Of a DNA stretch of 46,259 nucleotides, positions 12,405-42,380 are shown in pieces. Where the stretch lies: contig JAQWUF010000194.1 of assembly GCA_029242295.1 (NCBI GenBank), forward strand, positions 1 to 46,259. Direction: 5' to 3'. Positions within the stretch are counted from its first letter, which is position 1, and each line of letters begins with the position of its first letter. The stretch comes from Crocinitomicaceae bacterium. Its GTDB lineage: Bacteria > Bacteroidota > Bacteroidia > Flavobacteriales_D > Crocinitomicaceae. Both the position numbers and the translations under genes were made by a program. The notes beneath the pieces were generated by a model. That model ran no database searches. It was not told the origin of the DNA and saw only the letters and a program-made list of their open reading frames with translations.

Positions 12405-13543
12405 TGGATTCATTAACGCAAATAGTACTTGGAGCTTCCGTTGGTGAGGCCGTTCTCGGAAAGAAAATTGGAAATAGAGCCATGCTTTGGGGTGCAATTG
12501 CCGGAACGATTCCTGATTTGGACGTTTTTATCCGCTATTTCACCGATCCAATTACTTCAACGGAAATACACCGAGGCGTATCGCATTCTATTCTGTTTGC
12601 TATTGTGATGGCCTTTGTTTTGGGCTGGCTCGTCCATAAAAATGAAAAACTGACCTTTGGATTGCTGACTCTTTCTGTTTTTGGATTGACGGCAATTGTG
12701 ACGCCTTCGGCTATGTTCAGAATCATAATGATTCTTCTAATTCTAGGTGTTTTTACGCTGATCTATTTTACTAAAATTAAATCGACAGTCACTGCCAAAG
12801 ATTGGGGTAAACTCTTTTTCTGGAGTTTGGTTACGCATCCTTTGCTAGATGCCCATACAACTTGGGGTACACAGCTGTTTTGGCCTTTCGAATACCGTTT
12901 GGCATACAAAAACATATTCGTTGCAGATCCATTGTACACGGTTCCTTTTCTCATATTGGTAATTGCAGCCCTGTGTTACAAAAGATCGAATACAAAGCGC
13001 ACGAAAATCAACAATTGGGCGCTCATTATCAGTACTTCCTACATGGCTTTAACCCTTGTTTTCAAAGGAATTGCTCAATATAAGTTTGATAGCGCATTGA
13101 AGGAACAAGGCATTGCATATACTGAAATGGATACCCAGCCGACGCCACTAAACAGTATACTTTGGAGCGCTCAGATTGAAACGAAAACTGGATTTACTTC
13201 TGGATATTATTCCCTTTTCGATTCTCGTCCGATTGCCTTCCATACAGAAATTCCGAAAGGGCATTACTTATTGAAACCTTATGAAAACAACAAGCAGGTT
13301 CAACAGATTAAAAAAATTGCGACCAGTTGGTATTTCGTTGAAAAAGACACGAATGGATTAGTTTTCACCGACATTCGTTTTGGCCAGTTTGGCTTCGACG
13401 ATTCGGCTCAATACATGTGGAAATACAACCTCAAAAAAAATATCAATGGAAAACTAGAAGTTGAACGTTCTGATTTTTCACCAAGAGATATAAATATGAA
13501 AAAGGCCTTTGGTGACCTTTGGACACGTATTAAGGGGAATTAA
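12404..13543 (+). CDS. membrane-bound metal-dependent hydrolase (YbcI/DUF457 family) with C-terminal extension
   Basis: MDSLTQIVLGASVGEAVLGKKIGNRAMLWGAIAGTIPDLDVF.. is the typical DUF457 N-terminus, and the protein has multiple TMs. TAATG overlap with the upstream gene. Confidence 0.7.
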   Translation: MDSLTQIVLGASVGEAVLGKKIGNRAMLWGAIAGTIPDLDVFIRYFTDPITSTEIHRGVSHSILFAIVMAFVLGWLVHKNEKLTFGLLTLSVFGLTAIVTPSAMFRIIMILLILGVFTLIYFTKIKSTVTAKDWGKLFFWSLVTHPLLDAHTTWGTQLFWPFEYRLAYKNIFVADPLYTVPFLILVIAALCYKRSNTKRTKINNWALIISTSYMALTLVFKGIAQYKFDSALKEQGIAYTEMDTQPTPLNSILWSAQIETKTGFTSGYYSLFDSRPIAFHTEIPKGHYLLKPYENNKQVQQIKKIATSWYFVEKDTNGLVFTDIRFGQFGFDDSAQYMWKYNLKKNINGKLEVERSDFSPRDINMKKAFGDLWTRIKGN

Positions 13544-15207: not shown

Positions 15208-16167
15208 TTACTGTTTTGTCAATATTATCCGATTATAACTCTGCATTCCTTGCATGATTGAAAACGGCATCAACCACCCAGCAATGGTGTTTTTAATCAA
15301 GTTTTTAGACATGATTTTATACTCCACTTTAGCCAAGCCGATTCTTTTGAAATACTTAACAGCGATGCGATGAAAACGTACCAAATTCGGCATAATAGCT
15401 TCGGAAATATCGTCGTTCATTTCTACTTCAAATCCAATTTTCTCAGCAATTTTCAACCATTCATCAATGTTGTGTCCGTTGCTTACACCCATCGTTTTCT
15501 CGATGAGGTAACTCGCTTTTTTCTGAGTAGGAGAGAGCTGGTCGAAATTCTTCGAGCGAAAACCTTCAAAAAGAATGAATTTTCCTCCCCGCTGCAAAAC
15601 ACGGTGAACTTCTGAAAGCGCTTTCTCCGGATTATCCGAATGACAAACGGATTCCAATTCAAAAACATAATCGAATCGCCGGTCGTTGAATTGCAAGTCA
15701 TGGAAATCACCAAAAGCGACAATCAAATTTTCAATTTCCTTCGATTTGGTTGCAGTATAATTCAAATGCTGTTCTGTAATTTCTATACCTTGAAAACCAA
15801 TATTCGGATTCCGTTCCGCTAAATATTTAGAATTGAATCCCTTACCGCAACCCAATTCGAGAACAGTAGCTTTTTTTTTAATGATTATTTCGTCTATTTC
15901 TTTGACTTGCTGATAGTATCCATCTTCATGAAATGCACCGTCATAGTTTATTGCCATGTGCACCGAACCTTCTTTGCTGTGTACTAAATTGTAGCCGAAA
16001 TTACTGTCTCGGTAATATTTCTGAATTTTCGTTCGATTGATGTCTTTGTTGAGAATTTTCTCTGTTTCAAAAATCTTCTCAATCAATGCGAGATGCTCTT
16101 CTAAAGTAGCTTCACTTAAAAAATAATCATTTTTCAGTAGCTTCACGATTGTATGAATTTCCGCCAA
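15208..16167 (-). CDS. class I SAM-dependent methyltransferase
   Basis: Motif I VLELGCGKGFNSKYLA and post-I/II ..RVLQRGGKFILFE.. It apparently starts at TTG (16165..16167), since the first in-frame ATG is about 70 codons in. Its stop lies 1 nt from the ClbS-like start. Confidence 0.75.
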   Translation of the reverse strand: MAEIHTIVKLLKNDYFLSEATLEEHLALIEKIFETEKILNKDINRTKIQKYYRDSNFGYNLVHSKEGSVHMAINYDGAFHEDGYYQQVKEIDEIIIKKKATVLELGCGKGFNSKYLAERNPNIGFQGIEITEQHLNYTATKSKEIENLIVAFGDFHDLQFNDRRFDYVFELESVCHSDNPEKALSEVHRVLQRGGKFILFEGFRSKNFDQLSPTQKKASYLIEKTMGVSNGHNIDEWLKIAEKIGFEVEMNDDISEAIMPNLVRFHRIAVKYFKRIGLAKVEYKIMSKNLIKNTIAGWLMPFSIMQGMQSYNRIILTKQ

Positions 16168-32259: not shown

Positions 32260-34335
32260 ATGAAATTGAGAAGGCTCTTCTTGGTTTTATCATTCTTTGC
32301 TTGTGCGTTGACGTCCCTTGCGCAAGAAAAAAATGACGTTATTCAACAACGAATAGAGTTTATTTCAGAACAATTGGAAGATGAGAGTCCCGATTTGACA
32401 AATCTTTTCGATCAACTGTTCTATTTCTATGACCATCCAATTAACCTGAACAATACCAATATTGATGAACTGAACGATCTTGGGCTTTTAACTGATCTTC
32501 AAATAAATGATTTATTTCTACATCAAAAACTTTTCGGGAAGTTAATTTCTATTTATGAACTGCAAAGTCTCCCGTATTGGGGCATGGAAACCATTCGTAT
32601 GGTTCTGCCTTTTGTTCGTGTAGATGATAAATTGGACAACCTAAACGTAACATTGAAAGAAGCTCTAAAAAATGGAAAAGTAGAAGCGTTTTTCCGTTAT
32701 CAAACTGTTCTGGAAGAAAAGAGTGCCTATCAAGATGTGCCGGATAGTGCACTGTTGAATAGTAATAGCTATTACTATGGAAATCCGGATCGTTATTATT
32801 CACGTTTCCGATATACTTATCGTACCAACCTGAGTATGGGAATTACCATGGAAAAGGATCCAGGAGAACAATTCGCAGGAGAGGCTCAGCCTTACGGTTT
32901 CGATTTTTATTCCATGCATGCCTTTTATAAAGGGGGAAAATATTTGAAAGCAGTGGCTCTCGGAGATTATCAAATTCAAATAGGTCAAGGTTTAAACTTA
33001 TGGTCTGGGTATGCCTTTGGAAAAACGGCGGACGTGACAAATATTAAAAGAAATGCAAACTCGTTAAAACCATATACATCGGTGGATGAAACACGTTTTC
33101 TGAGAGGTGCCGCTACAGAATTGGGCTGGAAGGATTTTTCCCTTGTTCTATTTGGAAGTCGAAAAAAGGTAGATGCAACTTTAATTGCCGATTCATTGCT
33201 GGAAGAACAAGAGTTTGTCTCGAGTATAAACTTGTCGGGATTACACCGAACGAATAGCGAAATCGCTAGAAAAAATACTTTTGAAGAAACAATAGCTGGT
33301 GCCAATCTTAAATACCAAAATAGAAACCTTCGTTTGGGGGTATCCTCTGTTTACCAAGGCTATAATAAAACGTTTAGCAAAACAATCGCACCTTACAATC
33401 AATTTGATTTCCGTGGAAAAAATTTCATGAGTCATAGTTTTGATTATTCTTTCGTTGTAAAGAATTTTAGCTTTTTTGGAGAAACAAGTATTGCTTCGCA
33501 CAGCAATAAAATGGGGAATTTACATGGAGTTCTTTTGGCAGTCGACCCGAGAGTAAGTTTTAGTCTGTTGTACCGGAATTACGATAGGGCTTATCAGACT
33601 CTTTACAACAATGGTTTCTCTGAAGGCAGCAATACACAAAACGAAAGAGGAATTTATTTTGGAGCGAAAATCAAGATTTCAAAAAGCTGGACCTTGAACA
33701 CCTATGCCGATTATTTTACCTTTCCGTGGATGAGATATTTAGTAGATGCGCCTTCAACTGGACATGAAGTTTTGTTTCAACCGACCTACCGACCTGATAA
33801 AAAACTGGAGTTGTATTTCCGTTTCCGTCAGCAAGAAAAGGCAAGAAATAGCCGTTACCAAGATGGAACGGTTACGGCAATTCAAAATGTGCTTCAAAGA
33901 AATTATCGAATCAATTTTAGCTACAAAGTGACGGAGGGCATTACCTTAAAATCAAGAGCTGAAATTATGACCTTGAACAGACCAAGTAGTCCAAATGAAA
34001 CTGGATTTTTAATCTATCAAGATTTACTCATTCGTCCAAAAACGTGGCCGATAGATTTGTCCATGCGCTACGCTTTCTTCGATACAGATAGTTACGATAC
34101 CCGTTTATACGCTTTCGAATCGAATGCTTTGTACGTGTTCTCTGTTCCAGCTTATTTTTACAAGGGAACCAGAGCATATTTAATGGTGCGTTGGACTTTC
34201 CTTCGCAAATTTGACCTCTGGGCGAGATATGCCGTCAATTTATACACCGATAGAGATTCATTGGGTTCTGGTGCAGAAATGATCAATACAAATCGTAAAT
34301 CGGAAGTGACTTTGCAGTTGAGGGTGAAGTTATAA
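32260..34335 (+). CDS. large putative outer-membrane protein with N-terminal helix-hairpin-helix (ComEA-like) motifs
   Basis: Signal peptide MKLRRLFLVLSFFACALTSLAQ. ..INLNNTNIDELNDLGLLTDLQINDLFLHQKLFGKLISIYELQSLPYWG.. is a ComEA-type HhH pair. The remaining 560 aa or so are Y/G/N-rich with amphipathic strand periodicity. It starts 1 nt after the upstream stop. Confidence 0.55.
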   Translation: MKLRRLFLVLSFFACALTSLAQEKNDVIQQRIEFISEQLEDESPDLTNLFDQLFYFYDHPINLNNTNIDELNDLGLLTDLQINDLFLHQKLFGKLISIYELQSLPYWGMETIRMVLPFVRVDDKLDNLNVTLKEALKNGKVEAFFRYQTVLEEKSAYQDVPDSALLNSNSYYYGNPDRYYSRFRYTYRTNLSMGITMEKDPGEQFAGEAQPYGFDFYSMHAFYKGGKYLKAVALGDYQIQIGQGLNLWSGYAFGKTADVTNIKRNANSLKPYTSVDETRFLRGAATELGWKDFSLVLFGSRKKVDATLIADSLLEEQEFVSSINLSGLHRTNSEIARKNTFEETIAGANLKYQNRNLRLGVSSVYQGYNKTFSKTIAPYNQFDFRGKNFMSHSFDYSFVVKNFSFFGETSIASHSNKMGNLHGVLLAVDPRVSFSLLYRNYDRAYQTLYNNGFSEGSNTQNERGIYFGAKIKISKSWTLNTYADYFTFPWMRYLVDAPSTGHEVLFQPTYRPDKKLELYFRFRQQEKARNSRYQDGTVTAIQNVLQRNYRINFSYKVTEGITLKSRAEIMTLNRPSSPNETGFLIYQDLLIRPKTWPIDLSMRYAFFDTDSYDTRLYAFESNALYVFSVPAYFYKGTRAYLMVRWTFLRKFDLWARYAVNLYTDRDSLGSGAEMINTNRKSEVTLQLRVKL

Positions 34336-34356
34336 TTGACGGTTGATTATTGAAAC
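34336..34356 (+). repeat. heptad array TTGACGG-TTGATTA-TTGAAAC
   Basis: Three 7-nt TTGA-initiated units that start directly after the TAA at 34333..34335. Confidence 0.6.
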
Positions 34357-34403
34357 GCTTTGCTTTTACCTTTGACTAACTTTCGCTTTAAATTACATTT
34401 CCG

Positions 34404-34427
34404 CCAATCCACCAATCCGCCAATCCG
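34404..34427 (+). repeat. tandem octamer CCAATCCA-CCAATCCG-CCAATCCG
   Basis: Three exact-period 8-nt units, 12 nt from the dnaX stop (34439), in the spacer between convergent genes. Confidence 0.7.
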
Positions 34428-34438
34428 AAATCGATAGA

Positions 34439-36159
34439 CTAATAATCGAAATCCAAATTAAAGGAACTCTTAAACGTGTGCAGATTCGGATACTTTCTCG
34501 CTAAAGTGTTGAATTGATGTTTTGGAGATTGAAACTGTTGTTCCGAGTCTTCATTTTCGGTTACGAAGCAATCCAATTGTATATCGAAGTTTTTTAAATG
34601 CTCTCTGAAAAAATTGGTCATTTTTTGTCTTGAAGCATCGATCATATTCATTTGAACGGCGTTATCCACTTCAATTCTAATTAAGTTACCTTCCGTAATG
34701 ATAGGTTCGCGTTTCACCATAGCATTGTACAAGGTCTCTTGCGCTTGCTCTTTTGCCTGAAAGGCGTATTGTCGCCAATACATGCGGAGTTGATCGCTCG
34801 AAAAGGATTCACGAGGCAAATCTTCATTTGGAATTACCTTGCTGTTTTCTTCCTCGTCTTTGAGAATTTGTTTGATGCTCGGATTGTGTGTTTTCAATTG
34901 CCCAGTTGGCGTAACCAGTGTTTTTAATTTTGTAACGGGCGGATCGTAAACAGGTCTTTCCGTAACATTGGGTTTGGCAACGGGCTTGGGTGCTGCATCT
35001 CTCAGGCTTTGACCTTTGAAAGCAATAATCTTGACGGGATCAGTTAAGGATTTTTTTTTTCGAGCTCACTTTTCAGCGAACACAATTGCATCAATCCTAC
35101 TTCGACGAGCAGCCTCGAGTTCTTGGCCGTCTTATATTCAATGTCGACTTTACTCAAAACAGCGATTGCACGCAACAAGTAATTCGGATCGATTTCTTTG
35201 GATTGTTCCAAATATTTCTGTTCCACATTCTCAGCTACTTCCAGTAATTTAGAAGTTCGAGGGTCTTTGCAGACCAACAAATCACGGTAATGATTCGCCA
35301 ATCCTGTCGCAAAATGATGCGGGTCAAATCCTTTTTCTACAACATCATTCAATAGGAGTAAAGCGGCTGGAATATCTTCTTTCAATGCCACATCTACAAT
35401 ACGGAAATAGTAGTCATAATCTAGAATATTCAAATTCTCCAGTACCTGTTTGTGGGTAATGTTGTTGCCAGCGAAAGTGACTATTTGATCGAAAATTGAA
35501 AGTGCATCTCGAAGTGCGCCATCTGCTTTTTGCGAAATTAGGTGCAATGCTTCTGGATCGGCGGTGATGTTTTCTTTTGCCGCGATATTGGCCAAATGAT
35601 TTGCCATGTCAGACACCTTGATCCGGTTGAAATCAAAAATTTGGCAACGAGATAAAATCGTCGGGATAATTTTGTGTTTTTCGGTTGTCGCTAAAATGAA
35701 AATGGCATGTTTTGGCGGCTCTTCCAAAGTCTTCAAAAAAGCGTTGAAGGCTTGTGCAGATAGCATGTGGACCTCATCAATGATATACACTTTGTGCGTA
35801 CCCAATTGAGGTGGTACCCGGACTTGATTGATCAATTCACGAATGTCATCCACCGAGTTATTCGAAGCGGCATCCAATTCATAAATGTTCAAAGAAGCAT
35901 TATCGTTGAAAGAAACACAAGAATCACATTTGTCGCATGCTTCCACATTCTCACCACGATCCGTACAGTTGATGGTCTTCGCTAAAATTCGAGCGGTGGT
36001 TGTTTTACCAACACCACGAGTTCCACAAAACAAAAACGCCTGAGCCAAATGATCCGTAGCGATTGCGCTACGCAAAGTAGTCGTAATGGACTTTTGTCCA
36101 ACAACCGTATCAAAGGTTTGGGGTCTATATTTTCTCGCGGAAACAACGTAATCACTCAT
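34439..36159 (-). CDS. dnaX: DNA polymerase III subunit gamma/tau; two-frame gene joined at an A10 run
   Basis: Frame 0 (36159..35044) reads MSDYVVSARKYRPQTFDTVVGQ.., P-loop GTRGVGKTT, Zn module C-x-C.., SRC motif ILSRCQ, and ends ..SELEKKNP*. The -1 frame is open from the run (35060..35051) to 34439 and encodes a P/K-rich linker plus a conserved C-terminal module (..NLIRIEVDNAVQMNMID..LARKYPNLHTFKSSFNLDFDY*). Confidence 0.85.
35051..35060 (-). other. A10 slippery/homopolymer tract at the dnaX gamma/tau junction
   Basis: There are ten T on the plus strand. On the coding strand this reads GAA AAA AAA AAT CCT TAA, with the stop 5 nt after the run. Confidence 0.9.
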
Positions 36160-36165
36160 GCTGCA

Positions 36166-36173
36166 CAAATATA
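36166..36173 (-). promoter_or_regulatory. candidate -7 box (TATATTTG) for dnaX
   Basis: Minus strand reads TATATTTG and ends 6 nt before the ATG at 36159, which implies a very short leader. The box overlaps the TTG used by the ORF track. Confidence 0.35.
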
Positions 36174-36280
36174 ACCAAAAGCTTTTTCGTGAATGCAGAG
36201 TAGTGGAGAAAGTAGGTCGATTTGTTGATAAAATTTAGGTTTCTCAACAATTCTTGTATTTATCGTGCAAACCAACTCCG

Positions 36281-36622
36281 TCAGCAATCATTGGTGTAAT
36301 TTTCTCTAATCGAGATTCTTTCGTATTCAAACCCTCGTTTCGCTTCAGAAATATAATCGGCGCACTCCCTTTGTTTTCCTGGCGATAATCTTTCAAAAGC
36401 ATTTTTTAATTTACCGTCGGACGATAGCCGAATTTTCATTTCAGCCATTGAATCAAACCGCCACTGACGCATTCCTTTTGTCTTTTCTTCATTAGCGTTC
36501 ATCAATTTTTTATTTCCATCCTTCAGGAATAAACATCTTTCGTGACCAACACACCATCCATTCGTGAAAATTAGTGCAATTCGTGGCCAAAATTCCCTAT
36601 TATTTTCCCTAACTTTATCCAA
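36281..36622 (-). pseudogene. N-terminally truncated YdeI/DUF1801-family remnant
   Basis: ..FLKDGNKKLMNANEEKTKGMRQWRFDSMAEM.. and ..LKNAFERLSPGKQRECADYISEAKR.. align with the middle and C-terminal parts of the 211-aa paralogue at 16860..17495. About 60 N-terminal residues are missing, there is an internal gap, and the only full-length start is a TTG overlapping the recF ATG. The first ATG is at 36502. Confidence 0.45.
36559..36587 (+). repeat. 29-nt phased ATT(C/A)GTG-word repeat, copy 3
   Basis: The repeat is CATTCGTGAAAATTAGTGCAATTCGTGGC, made of the words ATTCGTG, ATTAGTG and ATTCGTG at spacings of 10 and 9 nt. It ends 34 nt upstream of the recF ATG. Confidence 0.7.
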
Positions 36623-37749
36623 TGTATCTCAAGTCCATCCAACTCCTCAACTTCAAGAATTACGAAGAAGCGGAACTGCAACTTTCACCATCTGTGAATT
36701 GCTTTACAGGCGACAATGGATCAGGCAAAACCAATATCCTTGATGCAGTGCACTATCTCTCCGTTTGTAAATCTTACCTGAACGCTGTTGACCGGCAAAA
36801 CATACGTTTCGATCAACCTTTTTTCGTAATTCAAGGCATTTTTGACACTCCTGAACGAGAGGTCGATATTCAATGTTCCGTCAAACTCGGTTCCAAGAAA
36901 ATTTTCAAACGCAACAAAAAAGAATACGAAAAACTAGCAGAACATATCGGTCAATTTCCGTGTGTGATGATTTCACCTTACGATCGAAACCTAATCGGTG
37001 ATGGAAGTGAAGTTCGACGTAGATGGATGGACGGAATTATTGCACAATCCAACAGAGGATATCTGGAAGATTTACAGCGCTATAAAAAAGTACTGGACCA
37101 GCGAAATGCTTTGTTAAAAAACATGTACGAAAGTCGACTTTTCGATCGGGAATCTATCGAAGTCTGGAACGAACAATTGATTCGCTACGGGACTAAAATT
37201 CACGAAGCGAGAAAAGAGTTTTTGACAGAATTTATTCCCGTTTTTCAGAGATCCTACAATTTCATCGGGGAAGAAGACGAAAAAATTGATTTGGAATACC
37301 GTTCGCAATTGAATGATTTGACTTTTGCCGAATTGCTAGAAATCAATGAAAAGAAAGATGCTTTTACCCAATATACTCAGGGCGGAATTCACAAAGATGA
37401 TTTGCTTTTTACTATCAAAGAACATCCTGTTAAAAAATTTGGGTCGCAAGGTCAACAAAAAAGCTACCTAATTGCCCTACGTTTGGGGCAATTCGAATGG
37501 ATGAAGGAACATCTCAAAGCCATTCCAATTCTGCTGCTCGATGATATTTTCGATAAACTGGATGATAAAAGGGTAGAACGTCTACTTCAACTGGTTTCTG
37601 ATCACTCTTTCGGACAAGTTTTAGTTACAGATACTAACCGTGATCGACTGGAGAACATTTTCGGGCAAAGTGAAATTCCAATCCAATATTTCAGTGTCAG
37701 CAAAGGTGTTGTAACTCCAGAACAAACACTTAAAGCCGTTTCATCATGA
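36622..37749 (+). CDS. recF: DNA replication/repair protein RecF
   Basis: MYLKSIQLLNFKNYEEAEL.., Walker A GDNGSGKTNILDA, signature ..GSQGQQKS.. and Walker B LLLDDIFDKLD. Confidence 0.95.
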   Translation: MYLKSIQLLNFKNYEEAELQLSPSVNCFTGDNGSGKTNILDAVHYLSVCKSYLNAVDRQNIRFDQPFFVIQGIFDTPEREVDIQCSVKLGSKKIFKRNKKEYEKLAEHIGQFPCVMISPYDRNLIGDGSEVRRRWMDGIIAQSNRGYLEDLQRYKKVLDQRNALLKNMYESRLFDRESIEVWNEQLIRYGTKIHEARKEFLTEFIPVFQRSYNFIGEEDEKIDLEYRSQLNDLTFAELLEINEKKDAFTQYTQGGIHKDDLLFTIKEHPVKKFGSQGQQKSYLIALRLGQFEWMKEHLKAIPILLLDDIFDKLDDKRVERLLQLVSDHSFGQVLVTDTNRDRLENIFGQSEIPIQYFSVSKGVVTPEQTLKAVSS

Positions 37750-38039
37750 GTAAAGATAGAGATCCTAAACCCTTATCGGGACTAGTCGACCGATTCATGA
37801 AAGCCTACGGTCTAGAAGGCAAAATGGAGGAGATGAACATCATCAACAATTGGGAGGAGATCATGGGTAAAGCCATTGCCAACCGGACGAAAAGTGTTCG
37901 AATTCACGAAAAAGTGCTCTACATTGACCTCCATTCTTCTGTTATGCGAGAGGAATTACAAAGCGCTAAATCTTTGATTATTCAGAAAGTAAACGATTAC
38001 GCCGGCAAAGATTTGGTGATGAATGTTTGGCTGGGGTAA
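37746..38039 (+). CDS. DUF721 (DciA-like) protein
   Basis: 97 aa with an ATGA overlap with the recF stop. ..NWEEIMGKAIANRTKSVRIHEKVLYIDLHSSVMREEL.. is typical of DUF721. Confidence 0.8.
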   Translation: MSKDRDPKPLSGLVDRFMKAYGLEGKMEEMNIINNWEEIMGKAIANRTKSVRIHEKVLYIDLHSSVMREELQSAKSLIIQKVNDYAGKDLVMNVWLG

Positions 38040-38754: not shown

Positions 38755-40293
38755 TCACTCCAATATCTCCAACCAACTCTTGGGCCTTAGACCCTCATTC
38801 CAACGAAAACCTTGAATGAACTGCTCTTCTTTTTTAATCTTGATCATCGGATAAAAAACACCTTCTGGTCGATCAAAATACGTGATACTCACCACTTCAC
38901 CGCTGTCCAAATAAACGCGTAAATCGCCGGCATAAAGTCGATTCATACCGCTTCTTGTGATGGTGATATTTGAATCGTTTTCATCTGTTTGTTCAATGTA
39001 ATACACCGTTTGTGCATTGCCTTGAGCATCTGCTCGGGTGACTTCATTTTCCGTCATCCAAGCAATGATTTTTCGGCCTGCAATTTGATTAAAATAACCA
39101 ACCGTATCGACTAAAAAGAGTGCGCTCGCATTTTCAAAAATATCAGCTCGTTCTATAACACTGTCATTCAGAAAAACTAAAATGGTGTCGCCTTTTAATT
39201 CACCTTTGTTTGCCCATAAAATGGGACTGTTGTACATTTCAAGGACGTCTTTATTTTTATCGTAAATCAAACTATCGCATTGACCTTGTAATTTATTTTG
39301 GAAAATTTTCACCCCATTGTGAGCCATTATTCTCGATGTTTCATCTATCGAATCGCCTATTGTAAATAGGGTGTCGGCGTGCAGAAATAGACTGTCTTTT
39401 TTATCCGCTTTCACTGCCAAAGCATGTCCTGTCAGAAAAGTGCGTTTTTTCATGTCATTCTTGTACAGATAATCGCCTTGAAACTGAAATTTTTCGATGC
39501 TGTCTTCCAAATATACATTTCCTTTTCCTATGACCAATTCTTTCTGCGGTTGATAATACAATGTGTCGCTCTTAATCAACTGTGAGCCCTGGGTTACTGT
39601 TGCGTTGTTCATCAATTCGCCTTCTTCTTTGTCTGTTCTATACCAGCCTTTTGAACATGTTATGACAGTGCTGTCTTTATAAATTGTCGTCGGTCCAAAA
39701 AAGTTAACTTTCCGACGGATATAAGAATATTGCAAAGTATCGGTCGTCATTTTTATATCTGAACCTCGATAATCGACATTTCCCTTGAAGAAAAAATCTT
39801 TGGTATCTGGATAGAAGTACCCTACTCGGCTAGTAATGGTTTCGTTACCTGCAATACTTTCAATTTTTCCACCATTTCTATACGTTGCTCGACCTGCTTT
39901 CGTGTCATACTCCAAAGCTTTCGTAGTCAATTTGTATTCCTGGTCTCTTGCACGAACATTTCCAGATAAAAAAGCCGTTTCGGTATTGCCGTCGTAAGAA
40001 AGATAATCGCAAAACAGATTCAATCCACCCGGTTTGGTGATGTGTACATTTCCAAAAGCACGAACTTTATTGGTTTTGTCGTAGTACAAAGCTGAATCGC
40101 AGTACATAGTATTTCCTTGATAGGTGAAAACAACATTTCCCGCGAGACTCGTCGCATGCAGATGTGGTTGACGTGTAGCACGTTCAGAACCAGGCAGCAA
40201 CTCTAGGTAACTTTGCGTGAAACCGGTTGAGGCCACCAAAAAAAATGCGCTTACGAGAAGCGCATTTAAAATTCTATTTTTATTTGCGTTCAA
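38755..40293 (-). CDS. OstA/LptD-N-like repeat protein (putative periplasmic LPS-transport component)
   Basis: Signal peptide ..ALLVSAFFLVASTGFTQ. Repeated beta-jellyroll-like segments (..GNVVFTYQGNTMYCDSALYY.., ..GNVHITKPGG.., ..GNVRARDQEY..) as in OstA_N domains. It starts at TTG (40293), 3 nt after the purA stop, with no in-frame ATG in the signal peptide. Confidence 0.6.
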   Translation of the reverse strand: MNANKNRILNALLVSAFFLVASTGFTQSYLELLPGSERATRQPHLHATSLAGNVVFTYQGNTMYCDSALYYDKTNKVRAFGNVHITKPGGLNLFCDYLSYDGNTETAFLSGNVRARDQEYKLTTKALEYDTKAGRATYRNGGKIESIAGNETITSRVGYFYPDTKDFFFKGNVDYRGSDIKMTTDTLQYSYIRRKVNFFGPTTIYKDSTVITCSKGWYRTDKEEGELMNNATVTQGSQLIKSDTLYYQPQKELVIGKGNVYLEDSIEKFQFQGDYLYKNDMKKRTFLTGHALAVKADKKDSLFLHADTLFTIGDSIDETSRIMAHNGVKIFQNKLQGQCDSLIYDKNKDVLEMYNSPILWANKGELKGDTILVFLNDSVIERADIFENASALFLVDTVGYFNQIAGRKIIAWMTENEVTRADAQGNAQTVYYIEQTDENDSNITITRSGMNRLYAGDLRVYLDSGEVVSITYFDRPEGVFYPMIKIKKEEQFIQGFRWNEGLRPKSWLEILE

Positions 40294-41921: not shown

Positions 41922-42380
41922 CTATTTTTTGTCGTTTTTTTTCTTTCTTACACCATAGAAATAAAGAGAATGGTGTTGGATTTCAACGCCAAGTATGTCC
42001 TCAATTGTCGCTTTTATATTCTGAATTCTTGGATCGCAAAATTCTATAACTTCTCCCGTATCGGTGCAGATAACGTGATCGTGCTGTTTACTACCATGGG
42101 CTTTTTCGAATTGTGAATTGGACGCACTGAATTGGTGTTTACGAACTAAATTACAGGCCAACAATAAATCGATTGTGTTGTACAAAGTCGCTCTTGAAAC
42201 TCGGTAATTGTGACTCTTCATTTTGAAGTAAAGCGACTCAATATCGAAATGACCTTCGTAATCGTAAATTTCTGAGAGTATTACAAATCGTTCAGGAGTT
42301 TTCCTGTGACCATTTTGTTCCAGATATGCTGAAAAAATATCTTTAACTCTAGACTGTAAATCCTGATTAGACATGGTCAA
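41922..42380 (-). CDS. fur: Fur-family transcriptional regulator
   Basis: ..[15 protein letters not shown].. winged helix, ..[18 protein letters not shown].. and ..HHSLYFYG.. metal-site motifs. The metal specificity (Fur, PerR or Zur) cannot be told from the sequence. Confidence 0.8.

Follow-up and report, generated by a model that had tools for sequence, protein, structure and literature searches.

A split dnaX gene in a Crocinitomicaceae genome that probably makes tau by slippage on a conserved run of ten adenines

How can a cell obtain the tau subunit of its clamp loader from a dnaX gene whose DNA reads, in one frame, only into a shorter gamma-like subunit? The dnaX gene is essential, and tau tethers the polymerases and the helicase. 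The question is raised by a contig of a Crocinitomicaceae bacterium (JAQWUF010000194.1; we call the whole stretch of 46,259 nt that was analyzed the window), where dnaX lies on the minus strand and is interrupted at a run of ten adenines, A10. The junction reads AGT GAG CTC GAA AAA AAA AAT CCT TAA, with the run at 35060..35051 and the TAA that closes frame 0 at 35046..35044, two codons past it. An earlier note on this DNA, made from the sequence alone, had described a gamma-like open reading frame (ORF) that ends at this run with a stop just after it, and direct reading of the letters bears this out. The ORF finder starts this frame at a TTG (35044..36168, 374 aa); because its homologues begin with MSD, we take the product as 371 aa from the ATG at 36159.

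The other two frames behave very differently past the run. The -1 frame, read from 35053, translates as KSLTDPVKIIAFKGQ...FNLDFDY* and continues for 204 aa to its first stop at 34441..34439, whereas the +1 frame closes three codons past the run at TGA (35042..35040). As the earlier note had worked out and translation of the frames confirmed, tau can be reached only from an mRNA with A11 or by a -1 shift; an mRNA with A9 would instead end EKKILN* at that TGA. The note had also seen no credible start within the -1 frame, and indeed its earliest canonical start is a TTG at 34897, 52 codons past the run. The two stops overlap as TAACTGA, bases that the tau frame reads as L-T-D.

A10 is the sole homopolymer of at least 10 nt within the 46-kb window. 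The other long runs, which the note had offered as an internal control (T9 at 15871-15879, A8 at 13433-13440, A8 at 40238-40245 and T8 at 41935-41942), proved to be in frame, all of them inside intact ORFs. The window shows no sign of general homopolymer miscalling, and no other gene in it is split at a homopolymer.

Both halves of the gene are recognizable as DnaX. The 371-aa product contains the Pfam domains DNA_pol3_delta2, DNAX_ATPase_lid and DNA_pol3_gamma3 and matches the NCBIfam model NF011531 (DNA polymerase III subunit gamma/tau) over positions 1-369 of 614 with 689 bits, against a cutoff of 685. The 204-aa product of the -1 frame matches the same model at positions 447-613 (E 3.7e-21), in line with the tau-type C-terminal module that the note had proposed there, and the fused 573-aa protein gives one continuous match to NF004046 (9-544). 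A search of a local copy of Pfam with the C-terminal ORF of the window found no match, and its identity as tau therefore rests on NF011531. The domain DUF8439 (PF28557) is known here from precomputed annotations only; it is annotated on the equivalent product in relatives and is confined to full-length DnaX or to the downstream ORF.

Structure prediction points the same way. The AlphaFold (AF2) model of the C-terminal product has a confident core, with block means of the predicted local distance difference test (pLDDT), taken over 10 residues, of 84-92 across residues 81-160. A fold search with this model returned nothing at E <=0.001; the best PDB matches, at weak E values of 0.07-0.4, were DnaA domain I (4TPS), DciA (8A3V, 7YKM) and FliK (2RRL), with template modeling scores (TM-scores), normalized to target length, of 0.63-0.68 for 4TPS and 7YKM and about 0.40 for 8A3V. 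DnaA domain I, DciA structures and tau domain V have been grouped in one type-II KH class (Marsin et al. 2021), and the predicted fold class of the C-terminal model is consistent with tau domain V, short of proof.

Homology to in-frame tau proteins starts directly after the lysine run and spans the 52 codons ahead of the TTG at 34897. The residues that follow the lysines, SLTDPVKII[AP]F, are identical in relatives whether they are encoded in frame or out of frame, an argument that translation runs on from the first ORF into the -1 ORF rather than starting anew within it. Judged by homology, the second ORF is the tau-specific C-terminus of DnaX.

How general is the run? We compared 80 Bacteroidota genome loci (L001-L080) that were fetched with the fused protein as the query. 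Inside dnaX, 62 of them carry A10, six A9, two A11 and one A13, and the run lies at codon 351-387 in all save one locus. The flanks of the same loci, 334 kb in total, hold one run of 10 and thirteen runs of 9; the recurrence of A10 at the same place in 62 of 80 loci is therefore far above chance and marks a selected site. At all 67 loci that were scored, a single frame can be read on past the run for about 160-290 codons (three loci reach the contig end). In the non-tau frames the first stop comes after a median of 4 codons and 15 at most, compared to a median of 18 at control positions, and both of them are closed within 7 codons in 93% of these loci versus 16% of control positions.

What varies is the frame in which tau is encoded. 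It is frame 0 in 52 loci, -1, the window's type, in 13 (14 including L003), and +1 in two (L041, Paludibacter, and L056, Bacteroidaceae), and across Bacteroidota dnaX each of the three possible codon phases of the run occurs. In 16 of 16 split loci, the tau frame is open straight from the run. Polarity varies even inside groups with at least 80% N-terminal identity. Within the Flavobacteriaceae, it flips through indels of 1-2 nt just before or after the run, with A10 itself retained (L035, L036, L040, L044 and L038 versus L079, L080 and L072). The spacing from the run to ATAATTCC is 13 nt in the in-frame Flavobacteriaceae loci and in L072, and 12 nt in L079; in L080, 11 nt separate the run from ATAATACC. 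L072 is split despite its 13-nt spacing because its run sits in a different phase. As far as can be judged from these sequences, an in-frame A10 followed by close stops in most of these loci implies that gamma would be produced phylum-wide by slippage of the Thermus kind.

Closer relatives of the window bear on whether its own split is real or whether the true or ancestral gene is a single-frame A11 dnaX, hidden by a homopolymer miscount, a recent inactivating frameshift or phase variation at the DNA level. Among the best 120 clusters in a search with the fused protein, 100 are proteins of 371-383 aa that end in EKK[N/K] plus 1-5 residues, and the other 20 are full-length; some 100 diverged clusters thus stop at the same place. 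The nearest population, P0003, has a 371-aa protein that is 98% identical to that of the window. The index of the assembly collection lists exactly this P0003 protein in 83 blocks, of which 22 contigs were read, and A10 is present in all six P0003-population loci read, which come from different samples and include two NCBI metagenome-assembled genomes (MAGs). A10 with the -1 offset is shared by L001, L002, L003, L006 and L082-L087. The same split also occurs in complete and isolate genomes: we found it in the isolate Flavobacterium quisquiliarum (L079), and supplementary figure S3 of Antonov et al. (2013; PMC3711429) has a split A10 dnaX in F. johnsoniae, F. psychrophilum and Cytophaga hutchinsonii.

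Two observations favor a miscount or lesion. In L081, a contig of the same population that is 92% identical to the window at the nucleotide level, the run is A11 and the 573-aa tau is encoded without interruption; this A11 is either a rare variant or a miscount. Two near-identical JGI contigs encode proteins that end EKKILH (P0019, 372 aa, contig of 40329 nt) and EKKNPSLI (P0020, 374 aa, contig of 40330 nt), ends that would fit A9 and A10, and the difference may be run-length heterogeneity within one population, arising from sequencing noise or from real slippage at the DNA level. The earlier note had proposed an alignment of dnaX from close relatives as a check, and in these both the run and the frame offset are conserved. 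We conclude that the split in the window's dnaX is genuine and not an assembly error.

In the window's family, the run ranges from 10 to 14 nt, and its length by itself switches which subunit is encoded in frame 0. Lineages with tau in frame have A11 (P0013, 9 contigs; L088/L089), A14 (P0012; L090-L093) or A12 (L094/L095), and the A14 run was seen in four independent marine contigs (P0012). Following the run is the motif TTAACTGA, which supplies TAA and TGA in the two non-tau frames and Leu-Thr-Asp/Glu in the tau frame. This double stop is kept in relatives of both polarities (L001, L002, L088-L093, L095), including most of the in-frame lineages of the family. In tau, a conserved II(P/A)F motif lies 5-8 residues past the run. 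As to the sources of these loci, two lake MAGs, L001 and L003, are titled 'Chryseobacterium gleum' and 'Chitinophaga pinensis'; they look mislabelled, because their DnaX is 73-76% identical to that of the window and of MAGs labelled Crocinitomicaceae.

The sequence on the 5' side of the run has a feature of its own. We looked for closed hairpins that end, on their 3' side, 0-3 nt from the run, scored them and ranked them against control positions of the same gene. The hairpin in the window (35083..35062) has 7-8 bp and a predicted energy of -8.4 to -9.0 kcal/mol, with a rank of 0.05, and a weaker consensus stem is present in nine of ten members of the window's family. Over the loci compared, the 36 nt that precede the run fold better than control windows taken from within each dnaX (mean z -0.92, median rank 0.18, n=67). 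The hairpin rank is <=0.05 in 26% and <=0.1 in 40% of 68 loci; after collapsing at 80% identity, 38% of 39 clusters still have a rank <=0.1 (binomial p = 3e-5). Loci with a hairpin near the run include L004, L010, L013, L017, L028, L029, L035, L036, L040, L041, L052, L073 and L079. The stems are unrelated in sequence between taxa, for example CUCUAUCA/UGAUGGAG, GCCGUU/AACGGC and CGCUUGUG/CACAAGCG. We regard the hairpin, which may enhance slippage, as a lead rather than a finding.

Starting from what is observed, namely how the locus is built and conserved and that its second ORF encodes the tau part, we think it likely that the window's dnaX is a genuine, evolutionarily maintained recoding site at which tau is made by transcriptional slippage on A10, as in Thermus but with reversed polarity. 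The ten-A tract is about as long as the RNA-DNA hybrid; RNA polymerase would slip on it and so yield a mixed population of mRNAs. Unslipped A10 transcripts would be read in frame 0 to the stop two codons past the run and give the 371-aa gamma-like subunit with domains I-III, ending ELEKKNP. Transcripts with A11 (also A8 or A14) would enter the -1 frame and give the 573-aa tau, ...ELEKKK-SLTDPVKIIAF..., with its linker and C-terminal KH-like domain; this product would carry the junction peptide ELEKKKSLTDPVK. Transcripts with A9 or A12 would stop at the TGA of the third frame and so also encode a gamma-like protein. A hairpin in the nascent RNA directly 5' of the run may boost slippage, and -1 slippage of the ribosome on A_AAA_AAA would yield an identical tau and may contribute.

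Along with the ratio of the products and the role of the hairpin, the level at which the frame changes is something that we infer, and we place it mainly at transcription for four reasons: the length of the run is kept near that of the RNA-DNA hybrid, the codon phase of the run is free to vary, tau is found in the 0, -1 and +1 frames at different loci, and run length switches polarity among close relatives. The directional pattern agrees with the criterion for transcriptional realignment used by Antonov et al. (2013; PMC3711429).

Several points weigh against slippage by the polymerase as the source of tau. A10 holds A_AAA_AAA in every phase, so that ribosomal -1 shifting is possible for loci of the -1 type. 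Should insertions fall off geometrically, as they do in Thermus, tau would make up the smaller share of the product in the window, and for the subunit that holds the polymerases this is unexpected. The hairpin mechanism known from the literature led to deletions, but the window's tau calls for +1 or -2. Ten of 68 loci lack the hairpin, and in some close relatives it is weak (L001, -2.4 kcal/mol; L002, -0.4 kcal/mol); in the window's family it overlaps conserved Cys-Ser...Glu-Leu codons, and part of its signal may come from coding constraint. Finally, the 80 loci are phylogenetically related and were chosen by their similarity to the fused query.

A broader proposal joins all of these elements: A10, the abutting 5' hairpin and the paired stops in the non-tau frames could form one conserved, hairpin-assisted slippage cassette, acting at transcription, that makes both DnaX subunits in most Bacteroidota and whose polarity has flipped many times through indels of 1-2 nt beside the run or through run length (A10, A11, A12, A14). 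We put this forward tentatively and consider it somewhat doubtful as a whole. If it were true, slippage would be efficient enough for either genomic frame to support replication.

The alternative that fares best is that tau arises mainly by -1 programmed ribosomal frameshifting on the A_AAA_AAA of an A10 mRNA, as in E. coli except that the two products trade places. The junction does offer an X_XXY_YYZ heptamer in the right phase (gA_AAA_AAA_Au), and the resulting protein would equal the one made from A11 transcripts. Reversed dnaX genes are treated under this heading by Atkins et al. (2016; PMC5009743), with one Chlorobium candidate that has stimulators like those of E. coli. At the window, in contrast, the elements expected to stimulate the ribosome did not appear: the 90 nt downstream of the run contain no significant structure (z -0.39; the mean downstream z of 67 loci is +0.17), an Rfam scan of 34300-36300 with E up to 10 gave chance matches only and no frameshift element, and direct reading of the 20 nt upstream of the run (...GAAAAGTGAGCTCG) shows no GGAG/AGGA-like Shine-Dalgarno motif. 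A T follows A10; there is no AAG at the end of the run, and A_AAA_AAA is the sole heptamer, with no A_AAA_AAG. In E. coli, the former is reported in the same review to be far less prone to shifting than the latter. A mechanism specific to the heptamer would also leave unexplained why a length of 10 is kept in all three phases, including where tau lies in the +1 frame or in frame 0. For these reasons we regard ribosomal frameshifting as an unlikely main source of tau.

Less probable still is that the two ORFs are expressed separately, as a gamma-like clamp loader and a free C-terminal protein from an internal start such as the TTG at 34897, with no fusion. Such a start is present, and gene callers annotate a distinct 152-aa DUF8439 product downstream. 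Yet the tau homology that precedes this TTG begins at the first residue after the lysine run, no split locus has a tau frame that opens later than the run, and in relatives whose run is A11, A12 or A14 the same sequence is part of a single polypeptide. We also found no promoter-like site at the junction; counts of internal promoters and terminators there equal the shuffled expectation. This account is very improbable. The weakest is the miscount, lesion or phase-variable switch raised above, which the A10 of the closest loci, the shared end point of diverged clusters and the absence of any other homopolymer-split gene in the window make hardly credible, an off-switch being implausible because dnaX is essential.

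How does slippage on A10 in the window compare with known systems? According to Antonov et al. (2013; Nucleic Acids Research 41:6514, PMC3711429), the GeneTack dnaX cluster holds 17 two-ORF dnaX genes in 12 genera, nine of them with A10, from groups including Flavobacterium, Cytophaga, Capnocytophaga, Chlorobi and Coraliomargarita, and transcriptional realignment was proposed for them by analogy with Thermus. As in those genes, the N-terminal ORF of the window ends right after A10 and tau lies in the -1 frame, in the same phylum, with the position and direction of the shift conserved among the window's relatives. The difference is one of lineage and not of kind: the window, which lies near MAGs labelled Crocinitomicaceae/Flavobacteriales, is outside the 2013 list. 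The window's dnaX thus belongs to an already described two-ORF class, known since 2013 and restated by Atkins et al. (2016; PMC5009743). The earlier note's reversed polarity, with gamma in frame 0 and tau by recoding, therefore stands as a description but is not new. No description of the hairpin, or of an in-frame A10 throughout the phylum, turned up in the literature that we searched; the passages of Antonov et al. (2013) that were read mention neither of these, nor the +1 variants or the double stop. Searches that included Flavobacterium and Bacteroides dnaX slippage found no experimental test of a two-ORF dnaX.

In Thermus thermophilus dnaX (Larsen et al. 2000, as described in PMC1088944 and PMC5009743), RNA polymerase slips on A9, the mRNAs gain A's and stops in both non-zero frames give gamma. 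The window resembles it in having an A run at the gamma/tau boundary (A10 for A9) with nearby stops in both alternative frames and, by analogy, in the predicted production of two subunits from one gene through heterogeneous mRNAs. The two differ in polarity: tau is the frame-0 product of Thermus and gamma comes from slipped mRNAs, whereas in the window frame 0 encodes gamma and tau needs +1, -2 or +4. Tau in frame 0 is the arrangement of 52 of the 67 other Bacteroidota loci. E. coli dnaX is the same gene and, like the window's, has a slippery site rich in A where domain III gives way to the tau-specific part, and two products, predicted ones in the case of the window, with a common N-terminus; its A_AAA_AAG, Shine-Dalgarno element and stem-loop have no counterpart in the window, which has no AAG, no Shine-Dalgarno motif, no downstream stem-loop and no significant Rfam match, and the polarity is reversed.

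The IS630 element of Roseiflexus (Penno et al. 2015, as summarized in PMC5009743) offers a precedent for a nascent-RNA stem-loop immediately 5' of a slippage motif. There the motif is T5C5 and the product is one nucleotide short; in the window the run is A10, tau needs an added A, and the role of the hairpin is suggested by statistics. The earlier note had also likened the locus to the poly(A) rescue of frameshifted genes in insect endosymbionts (Buchnera, Blochmannia). The likeness holds insofar as the function of a frameshifted gene would rely on polymerase infidelity at a poly(A) tract. In those decaying genomes, however, the shifts are lesions, whereas the tract in the window is conserved across a free-living phylum in either polarity and comes with purpose-built stops. 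The analogy is weaker than that to Thermus because free-living Bacteroidota have the run in their dnaX as an ancient feature under selection and not as a tolerated lesion.

Coordinates of the features of the dnaX locus in the window
Feature	Position	Strand	Details and basis
dnaX frame-0 ORF, gamma-like clamp-loader subunit, domains I-III	35044..36159	-	371 aa + TAA; Pfam and NCBIfam matches
A10 slippery run, proposed recoding site (T10 on the + strand)	35051..35060	-	direct reading; homologous A10 in relatives
tau-specific extension in the -1 frame: P/K-rich linker and C-terminal DUF8439/KH-like domain	34439..35053	-	204 codons + TAG
Overlapping stops TAACTGA	35040..35046	-	TAA closes frame 0 (A10 mRNA); TGA closes the +1 frame (A9/A12 mRNA)
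RNA hairpin, core GUUCGCU-GAAA-AGUGAGC, candidate slippage stimulator	35062..35083	-	3' end adjoins the A10 run; putative role

Around dnaX, recF (SMC_N/AAA, 375 aa) adjoins the gene divergently and is followed by a 97-aa DciA (PF05258) helicase-loader gene, together at 36622-38039 on the + strand; the predicted C-terminal domain of tau and DciA share the type-II KH fold class. On the other side, a convergent 691-aa ORF (32260-34335, +) has a signal-peptide-like N-terminus and no Pfam match, and its gene is kept beside dnaX in the closest relatives, L081-L087. Elsewhere in the window, two ORF pairs were considered as split genes and rejected: 5852-6532/6397-7023 are separate genes for a Cob adenosyltransferase and an HD-domain protein, and 41570-41920/41922-42380 encode a separate STAS-domain protein and a Fur-family regulator.

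Annotation pipelines call genes of this kind as a 371-aa 'gamma/tau' protein plus a hypothetical DUF8439 protein, entries that belong joined as one recoded gene. The comparative picture, with A10 kept phylum-wide in either polarity, paired stops and an enriched 5' hairpin, yields testable predictions; replacing A10 with AAGAAGAAGA, for instance, would abolish both transcriptional and ribosomal slippage if the site acts as proposed. Split dnaX genes are a good natural system in which to gauge how efficient and how tunable transcriptional slippage is. If the recoding is true, a genome whose DNA at this locus encodes gamma alone depends on an error-like slippage for its replication.

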